Source: Octopus vulgaris (lineage: Eukaryota). Taken from it: 64,000 nt of DNA. Shown here piece after piece: positions 30,306 through 31,933 of this stretch. Location: positions 21,576,001 through 21,640,000 of the forward strand of contig OX597832.1 of assembly GCA_951406725.2 (NCBI GenBank), in the 5' to 3' direction. The translations under genes and the position numbers were made by a program. The notes under the pieces are model-generated. The model searched no databases. It was not told the DNA's origin and saw only the letters and a program-made list of their open reading frames with translations. How positions within the stretch are numbered: position 1 is the stretch's first letter; each line of letters begins with the position of its first letter.

Positions 30306-30526
30306 AGGTGTGTGTGTGTAAGTGTGTGTAAGTGTGTGTGTGCCTGCGTGTTAATATATGATTAAATTACGACCAATCACCTCTCTTGCCAAAAATAAAG
30401 CCGTCGAAATGCTTGGCTACAGTAAGCGAATGGTTTGTTTGCGTCCTCAAGATCTATTTTGCAAGGCATGCTAAATAGAAATTGAATCAGAAGTCGGCAT
30501 CATAAGAGATAAAAATAACATCACAG

Positions 30527-30822
30527 CATGGATGTTGTGGCGTGCTCCTGTAATCCAGCTACTCGGAGGCTTGGTTGGTTGGCCGGTTTGAGGATGGGAG
30601 TCCTGGTAGTCAGTCTTCCATGGCGATTGGGTGTCCGCGCTAAGCTCGGCATCAATATGGTTCTGGAGAGGGAGCTCATAAGGACCAGGTTGTCTAAGGA
30701 GGGTCGCTTCGGCCCAGGGCGGAAACGCAGCAGGCAAAAGACTCCGTGTCGAGCAGTAGTGGGATTGCGCCTGTGAATAGTCGTCGGCTGGCAGCCTGTT
30801 CGATGCAACTGAACACCAATCT
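30527..30822 (+). ncRNA. 7SL (SRP) RNA sequence, full length; probably a retroposed or chimeric copy
   Basis: Collinear with metazoan 7SL: GTGGCGTGCTCCTGTAATCCAGCTACTCGGAGGCT, GGGTGTCCGCGCTAAGCTCGGCATCAATATGGT, helix 6 GGAG loop, helix 8 CAGGGCGGAAACGCAGCAGG, CAGTAGTGGGATTGCGCCTGTGAATAG. No oligo-T terminator follows. Confidence 0.93.
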
Positions 30823-30834
30823 ATGAAAGATAAT

Positions 30835-30899
30835 GGCGGTGCCCCAGCATGGCCACAGCTCGTGAGCTGAAACTAGATAAAATAAAATAAAAATAAAAA
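30835..30899 (+). mobile_element. SINE-type 3' tail attached to the 7SL sequence
   Basis: GGCGGTGCCCCAGCATGGCCA CAGCT cgtg AGCTG AAAC plus (TAAAA)n; homologous to the family A tail. Confidence 0.85.
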
Positions 30900-31316
30900 G
30901 GCGCAGGAGTGGCTGTGTGGTAAGTAGCTTGCTAACCAACCACATGGTTCCGGGTTCAGTCCCACTGCGTGGCAACTTGGGCAAGTATCTTCTGCTATAG
31001 CTCCGGGCTGACCAAAGCCTTGTGAGTGGATTTGGTACACGGAAACTGAAAGAAGACTGTCGTATATATGTATATATATGTGTGTGTGTATGTGTGTGTG
31101 TGTGTGTGAGTTTGTCCCCCTAGCATTGCTTGACAACCGATGCTGGTGTGTTTACGTCCCCGTCACTTAGCGGTTCGGCAAAAGAGACCGATAGAACAAG
31201 TACTAGACTTACAAAGAATAAGTCCCGGGGTCGATTTGCTCGACTAAATGCGGTGCTCCAGCATGGCCGCAGTCAAATGACTGAAATGACTGAAACAAGT
31301 AAAAGAGTAAAAGAGT
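30900..31316 (+). mobile_element. SINE family A, full length
   Basis: GGCGCAGGAGTGGCTGTGTGGTAAG head, B-box-like GGTTCAGTCC, CORE-like CTTGGGCAAGT, internal microsatellite, (GTAAAAGA)n tail. Confidence 0.93.
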
Positions 31317-31450
31317 ATATGGACAGGTCTAGACATGAAGGCAACTCTCTCATGCAGGTGAGCATTCTGATGCAGGCGGAGACACTGGGGATTGGTATAT
31401 TAATATGTTATTGCGCGGTGATCGCTTATAAGCTTTAAGCTTATAAAATA

Positions 31451-31933
31451 CTATAGCCAGCTGGAGGACGTTTCCTCCTGGGGCTACAAGCTACAGTAGC
31501 ATCCACCCTTAGGAGTTAGCCATATTTAAATGGCAAATATACATCACGATGTGTTGCAGCTACTGTTTATACCTCGCTCAGAGATTTGTTATTGCTTGAT
31601 TACACTTTTTCGATATCAGTGTCTTTACGATACTGGAAAAAGGATATACATTTGCAAGGGAACCTATTTTTCACCGACTACTGTGATTATCACACGCTGA
31701 TGACGGGTCAATATCCAGAAACTCGAGTCCGTGTGTATCATAAGTTGAAGACGGGAAGGATGGCTTCTCTTTGCAAATACTGATAGGGCACAGAAAGTTT
31801 GTCTATAGCCAGCTGGAGGAGGTGTCCTCCTGGGGCTACAAGCTATAGTAGCATCCACCCTTAGGGGTTAGCCATATTTAAATGACAAATATACATCACG
31901 ATGTGTTGCAGCTCTCGCTCTGAGATTTATTAT
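31451..31933 (+). mobile_element. Retrozyme-like / tandem pLTR unit: 352-bp period, ~140-bp direct repeats flanking a hammerhead
   Basis: CTATAGCCAGCTGGAGGA...GAGATTT at 31451-31593 and 31803-31933, with a hammerhead in between. Confidence 0.75.
31684..31740 (+). ncRNA. Type I hammerhead ribozyme motif
   Basis: CACACG CTGATGA c GGGT caat ATCC a GAAA CTCGAG TC CGTGTG; stem I extends via TGAT/ATCA; predicted cleavage after C31729. Confidence 0.85.

Follow-up and report, generated by a model that had tools for sequence, protein, structure and literature searches.

The window is a stretch of 64,000 nucleotides of Octopus vulgaris DNA and contains a copy of 7SL RNA at 30534–30824 on the + strand. 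This copy accounts for the sole Rfam match in the window (Metazoa_SRP, 30526–30824, model positions 1–299, 218 bits, E 2e-58), and no tRNA gene was detected in the window by ARAGORN. It scores lower than the four true 7SL genes that were scanned with the same model (232–250 bits). The S domain is present, and helices 6 and 8 are as a preliminary description of the locus had given them. That description was also right that no oligo-T follows the copy, the first run of at least four T being at 31606. It had called the 7SL sequence complete, which it is not: the sequence up to 30533 belongs to an old host repeat, and the copy is about 7 nt short at its 5' end compared with 7SL genes. The copy also lacks the upstream sequence that is common to the clustered genes described below, and its A-box region, as read from the sequence, is changed at the 5' junction.

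The 7SL copy is followed on the same strand by GAAAGAT, AAT, a GC-rich stem-loop region, (TAAAA)n and a family-A tRNA-SINE. The linker GAAAGAT (30825–30831) is encoded by neither the LINE nor the 7SL genes seen, and is likely to be a copied RNA tail or an addition by the reverse transcriptase (RT). The stem-loop region (30832–30877) is the 3' terminus of a CR1-like LINE, predicted to fold as hairpin 1 (30834–30855) stacked on hairpin 2 (30856–30869), with the junction 2 nt upstream of the base of hairpin 1. The terminal repeats of the LINE, (TAAAA)n, occupy 30878–30899. The preliminary description had recognised the stem-loop tail and the repeats but took them for the tail of the tRNA-SINEs. 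The tail is instead precisely the 3' end (the last ~65 nt) of a CR1-like LINE; the SINE-A tail, of which there are 55,562 exact matches in the genome, is a related yet distinct sequence that is only ~77–81% like the LINE tail.

A 35-nt piece of the LINE tail has 2615 exact matches in the genome (control 0). Long LINE copies extend the tail upstream into an RT frame (RVT_1), with a 651-aa open frame in one of them (L095). A 1033-aa relative, 89% identical, carries the endonuclease and RT domains PF14529 and PF00078; the tail donor is a LINE with an AP endonuclease and RT ORF of ~1000 aa. The closest named relatives of the protein are from Argonauta hians (59–63%). Searches with the protein returned no clade name, and we take the LINE to be CR1-like from its motifs. 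The LINE tail in general is predicted to fold as two stacked hairpins, and two-sided changes are seen in 3/13 hairpin pairs in a small set of 6 tails of four types. Local inverted duplications occur around some tails: at one locus (L073, ~1545–1700) a LINE copy runs directly into an inverted copy whose end falls within hairpin 1, and the same is found at L065/L066.

The insertion target is the old host repeat. Its left part (30364–30533, +) is 70–78% identical to 21 other genomic copies, most of which match until a few bases from 30533, and its right part (31319–31400, +) has an internal deletion of ~40 nt relative to its paralogues. All seven paralogues that were fetched run on into sequence like that from 31319 onward, and four of the seven also match the right flank by BLAST. 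Since the paralogues are continuous across the site, 30526–30533 is flank and not 7SL. The preliminary description saw no clear target-site duplication (TSD) and noted that a family-A SINE adjoins the tail at 30900. The SINE does so, but a duplication is present: ATGGA occurs at 30528–30532 and at 31319–31323, both on the + strand. These 5 bp enclose the 7SL copy, linker, LINE tail and SINE A, with 1–2 extra bases inside them, and the fusion has a single insertion site within the host repeat. GGA of the left ATGGA is also nucleotides 5–7 of 7SL, and may represent microhomology. Among 14 other chimeras scanned for TSDs most have no clear duplication and the flanks are A/T-rich; L002 and L007 have plausible short duplications by eye. 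Downstream of the insertion, 31405–31455 matches a common repeat, and two similar stretches of ~130 nt lie in direct orientation at 31452–31600 and 31804–31930.

The empty site in the paralogues means that 7SL interrupts the host repeat, which excludes an authentic 7SL gene, an alternative that the preliminary description had raised; the incomplete 5' end agrees with this. A related possibility is that an authentic gene or an older, plain 7SL pseudogene was later hit at its terminator by a tail-only LINE. Such tail-only copies are common, often in A/T-rich sites, and the 7SL fold is well kept. Nevertheless we regard this history as extremely improbable, because the interrupted repeat, the missing first 7 nt and the missing upstream sequence do not fit a gene, and because an independent second hit cannot account for the 33 of 34 dispersed copies that have a comparable structure (see below).

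The full-length family-A tRNA-SINE (30900–31316, +) lies within the same TSD as 7SL and the tail. There is an even chance that it was the first template of a three-part event. A two-step history, in which SINE A was inserted later into the A-rich tail, also fits. The divergence of both parts, 7SL with its tail and SINE A, from their relatives is a few per cent and does not decide between the two histories.

Genome pattern searches and fetches identified at least 50 7SL loci, these numbers being lower bounds; of 28 loci retrieved through exact or one-mismatch pattern matches, 17 proved not to be 7SL and were set aside. Sixteen are genes with oligo-T ends, all on contig C5: 13 in a tandem cluster and three others (L017, L028 and L030). 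The cluster, which looks authentic, lies at 143.065–143.117 Mb with a spacing of 3–6 kb (L012–L014, L018–L020, L022–L027 and L029), and a match to the U6 3' end is found ~12 kb from it. The non-gene copies adjoin a retroelement piece at their 3' side in 33 of 34 cases, the sole exception being L142. The partners are hairpin tails starting at the hot spot described below (22), SINE heads (7), internal SINE pieces (3, one of them, L163, only loosely counted here) and one other LINE-type tail. One chimera (L039) was later split by a second tRNA-SINE, with ~20 nt of 7SL on both sides.

Three 7SL allele types are present, which trace to the cluster, to L028 and to L030. The window copy has the type of gene L030 and of copies L006, L011 and L049, with 7 substitutions relative to that type. 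Copies with L028-type alleles have at least five different 3' partners. Alleles common to chimeras yet absent from genes are mostly scattered transitions; one, at position 262, is common to 10 copies with different tails. No S-domain deletion is shared among the 7SL copies. The preliminary description had named a single-copy junction as evidence against a family, and in the genome searches the window junction occurs once, being unique among the 7SL copies found.

These data bear on whether the window element belongs to a small 7SL-headed SINE family, the reading favoured by the title of the preliminary description, in which a master fusion of 7SL and tail, as a Pol III transcript, would be mobilised anew by the LINE. 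The head is indeed 7SL-derived. Five L028-type copies (L003, L004, L005, L008 and L010) are 0.7–1.4% from their nearest fellow chimera against 2.2–2.5% from gene L028, and have similar T(n)AAAT junctions; with fewer than four T at the junction in the window copy, L003, L007 and L010, Pol III could perhaps read into the tail. On the other hand, three versions of the tail occur among the same five copies, whose T-runs vary from 2 to 6 and whose alleles recur in copies with other partners (L007, L015 and L135), and most junctions keep at least four T, where Pol III would terminate short of the tail. Neither many copies of one structure nor a shared diagnostic change or deletion absent from the 7SL genes was found: there are only 34 non-gene copies, which differ in tail donor, linker and source paralogue, against the 2363 full-length copies given for hagfish SINE1 in the text available of PMC7245038. 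Thousands of tails occur without 7SL, and U6 and pre-tRNAs are joined to the same tail at the same point. According to the available text of PMC4494074, Kojima's criterion is that many LINE copies sharing the 3' end point to independent chimeras, and with 2615 exact LINE-tail matches it indicates independent chimeras here. The SINE-family reading is therefore largely refuted, and we consider it very improbable; the more striking claim of a cephalopod Alu-like family does not stand. The preliminary description had offered a one-off template-switch chimera as its other option, and of this the template switch is supported while the event is recurrent and not a one-off.

The LINE tails themselves have one preferred starting point. 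Among the first 70 of the 2615 tail matches, all on contig C1 and biased to young copies by the use of exact patterns, 44 start within -5 to +6 nt of GGCGG (mode +2 to +4), 6 extend 10–41 nt and 20 extend further. Two pairs in this sample are local duplicates, without which 42/68 are at the peak. The peak is 1–3 nt upstream of the predicted base of hairpin 1. SINE-A tails are truncated there without the SINE body in at most 1/30 cases, against 44/70 for the LINE (Fisher p 7e-9). Each of the 11 7SL or U6 chimeras whose tail is of this LINE type has its junction at the peak (p 0.006 against 63%), and no small RNA was found before the longer LINE copies in the sample. In the unselected sample, T-runs precede the LINE piece in 6/44 copies at the peak and 1/21 longer copies, a difference that is not significant (p 0.41). 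A second large junction class is the 5' end of full-length SINEs. Microhomology alone was rejected as the cause of the hot spot because A-rich patches 20–45 nt further upstream end only 2–3 of the 70 copies. As for a ribozyme at the junction, hammerhead and HDV-like layouts do not fit when compared by eye with their consensus, and Rfam reports no ribozyme in the window or at the tails.

The same point is used by other small RNAs. The U6 3' end has 259 exact genomic matches, of which the first 50 were examined; 7 are a gene cluster and 6 derive from duplication of a single chimera, so that 38 loci are independent. Here 32/38 are fused to a retroelement, half of them to a tail (16) and half to a SINE head (16); two more are joined to another U6, two to other repeat-like sequences (L130 and L208) and two to nothing recognised. 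The U6 gene cluster is a tandem array of seven with shared flanks (C1, 139.42–139.43 Mb, L119–L125). Whole tRNAs with trailer and oligo-T but no CCA were found at 7 of the first 30 of 69 matches to the pattern T5-AAAT-tail, and U6 at 3 of the 30; several more of these loci end, by eye, like tRNA 3' fragments. The trailers, oligo-T and absence of CCA indicate nascent-type Pol III RNAs, each from a different source. One of the seven tRNAs has an intron-like insert. At L273 (the same as L071; C1 near 10.21 Mb) the tRNA fused to the LINE tail has such an insert together with its 3' trailer and oligo-T, a layout that identifies its template as an unspliced pre-tRNA. Rfam-detectable small RNAs precede 3/70 sampled LINE tails, and scaling 3–6/70 to 2615 gives an estimate of ~100–200 captures by this LINE. 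Every one of 25 SINE-A heads examined (L226–L255 and the SINE-A copies of the window) is preceded by A, and 18 of them by ATA; as ATA also precedes many U6-joined SINE heads, it is probably a property of the template or enzyme and not only of the target.

Linkers at the junctions depend on the captured RNA. Measured after subtraction of encoded T-runs and donor-matched letters, and for loci with a recognised donor, the mean linker length is 5.4 nt at 27 junctions of 7SL and 2.3 nt at 32 of U6 (p 0.003). The 7SL linkers are A-rich, and G is present in 13/27 of them compared with 1/32 U6 linkers (p 9e-5). This dependence on the acceptor suggests that the letters come from the RNA's own tail, and it is rather probable that the A/G linker is a tail carried by 7SL RNA. 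Human 7SL is the most adenylated small RNA, mostly with a single A added by TENT2, and the available text of PMC12811392 gives no evidence for TENT4A/B. TENT4 mixed tailing was accordingly downgraded as the linker source; the human data weaken a mixed-tail reading of the linkers.

We conclude that the window element is very probably a 7SL retrocopy carrying ~65 nt from the 3' end of a CR1-like LINE. It is one of many separate fusions and likely arose when the LINE RT, in the course of insertion, quit the LINE template at a fixed place and jumped onto a 7SL RNA at its 3' end. Target-primed reverse transcription would start at (TAAAA)n and copy both hairpins. The RT would reach an end 1–3 nt past the stem and then either join target DNA, giving a tail-only copy, or, once the cDNA end had annealed to a nascent Pol III RNA at its 3' end, copy that RNA as well.

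Alternatively the small RNA and the LINE-tail RNA might be ligated as RNAs by an RtcB-type enzyme, the joined molecule then serving as the template for retrotransposition. A fixed 5' end of the donor is what cleavage and subsequent ligation would produce, U6 3' ends outnumber 7SL copies, and the route is recognised for U6/L1 in the available text of PMC11838501. Yet the acceptors include pre-tRNAs and 7SL with untrimmed oligo-U, the donors include full-length Pol III SINE heads, and no self-cleaving motif is visible at the junction. The 3'-OH ends and the 5'-triphosphate of such RNAs are not RtcB substrates, and this end chemistry counts against ligation. In L135, 7SL and the SINE body are separated by about six repeats of an 18-nt unit from the 5' end of SINE A, a pattern that suits re-entry of the enzyme. 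RNA ligation is thus very improbable.

For the template jump, two explanations of the fixed point were considered. The first, to which we give slightly under an even chance, is that the point is the true RNA 5' end of a hairpin-bound fragment protected from 5'-3' decay, so that all jumps would be end-to-end. Exonucleases stall at structured RNA, and end-to-end template jumping has reportedly been seen with R2. The second, that the enzyme releases its template once its binding site is unwound, is nearly as probable. End-to-end jumping is slightly preferred because of the SINE 5'-end junction class, the serial fusions, and the rarity of cuts at this place in the SINE with a similar hairpin. The serial fusions are tRNA-U6-(partial U6) in L206 (108–270) and U6-U6, head to tail, in L215 (167–378); together with the repeated SINE 5' ends in L135 they fit repeated jumps.

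A broader proposal, which is rather unlikely, may be put forward tentatively. The LINE mRNA may be trimmed to a discrete, enzyme-bound double-hairpin RNA of ~60 nt that acts as a universal starter, capturing new Pol III RNAs (7SL, U6, and pre-tRNAs bearing introns or trailers) end-to-end. The genome would then be a SINE nursery with about a hundred or more head-plus-tail elements from this LINE alone, the linkers would keep RNA 3' tails, and members without a terminator, such as the window 7SL, would be potential founders of a third 7SL-SINE lineage.

The template-switch model of SINE birth, in which a small-RNA head gains a LINE-recognition tail, usually takes its evidence from finished families. 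Many independent intermediates of minimal head-plus-tail structure, of mixed age and with a known source gene, are present in this genome. They permit tests of why tRNA heads become SINEs and 7SL or U6 heads mostly do not; candidate causes are a terminator kept at the junction, dependence on an upstream promoter, and the S domain. A single truncation site in ~60% of sampled insertions, near-absent in the partner SINE, also raises the question of how stringent LINEs hold their RNA.

Small-RNA/LINE chimeras are known from several systems. In platypus and anole, U6/L2, U6/Mon-1, U6/RTE and U6/AnolisSINE2 chimeras have been described, and L2 and RTE are said there to move U6 in chimeric form only (Doucet et al. 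2015, PMC4476161, text available in part). The octopus fusions resemble these in having a 3' part from a stringent LINE or its SINE, a small RNA at the 5' side, one orientation and small TSDs. They differ in the invertebrate host and the CR1-like LINE, the same source giving a single U6/CR1 case, in turkey, as unresolved. They differ also in using 7SL and many pre-tRNAs as acceptors and in placing the tail junctions at one structural position.

Human 7SL/L1 and tRNA/L1 chimeras likewise have 7SL or tRNA as the 5' partner of a LINE 3' end. The human cases are rare, with at most 21 loci per new type, and their tRNAs are mostly antisense halves (PMC11838501, in its available part). In the octopus the tRNAs are sense-strand and often whole pre-tRNAs with trailer and oligo-T, and almost every dispersed 7SL or U6 copy examined is a chimera. 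MINE of Magnaporthe grisea shares the non-random template-switch hot spots and the three-part chimeras under one TSD; its hot spots are placed along the LINE according to a sequence motif, a single non-coding RNA is the acceptor, and mammalian LINE chimeras are summarised in the same text as having a random truncation point (PMC2104539, available part). Unlike MINE, the octopus LINE has one site at the base of its 3' hairpin, and plain insertions are mainly truncated there too.

The hagfish SINE1-1_EBu resembles the window element in having a 7SL-derived head followed by a LINE- or SINE-derived tail. In true SINE1 families a single structure is present in thousands of copies, Alu and B1 lack the S domain, and the hagfish head is 96 bp, whereas the octopus copies keep the S domain and each has its own junction. 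The marsupial P7SL_MD, a full 7SL with polyA, is treated as indistinguishable from retrocopies (both from the available part of PMC7245038). No 7SL SINE of cephalopods is mentioned in the available text of PMC4758252, PMC5786205 or PMC9068888, and no report of cephalopod small-RNA/LINE chimeras or of such a hot spot was found in the open-access article texts searched.

The window locus is a small-RNA/LINE chimeric retrocopy, and neither a member of a SINE family nor an authentic gene. A small RNA is directly joined at the 5' side, in the same orientation, to a truncated LINE 3' end; there is a single insertion with a 5-bp TSD, which also encloses SINE A, and many LINE 3' ends occur without a small RNA. 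The random LINE truncation point given for such chimeras in mammals is replaced here by one hot spot. The class is already known and the window fusion belongs to it; apparently new, relative to the literature searched, are the LINE truncation peak at the hairpin base, the captures that join there to give a minimal head-plus-tail proto-SINE layout, and the G-containing, A-rich 7SL linkers.
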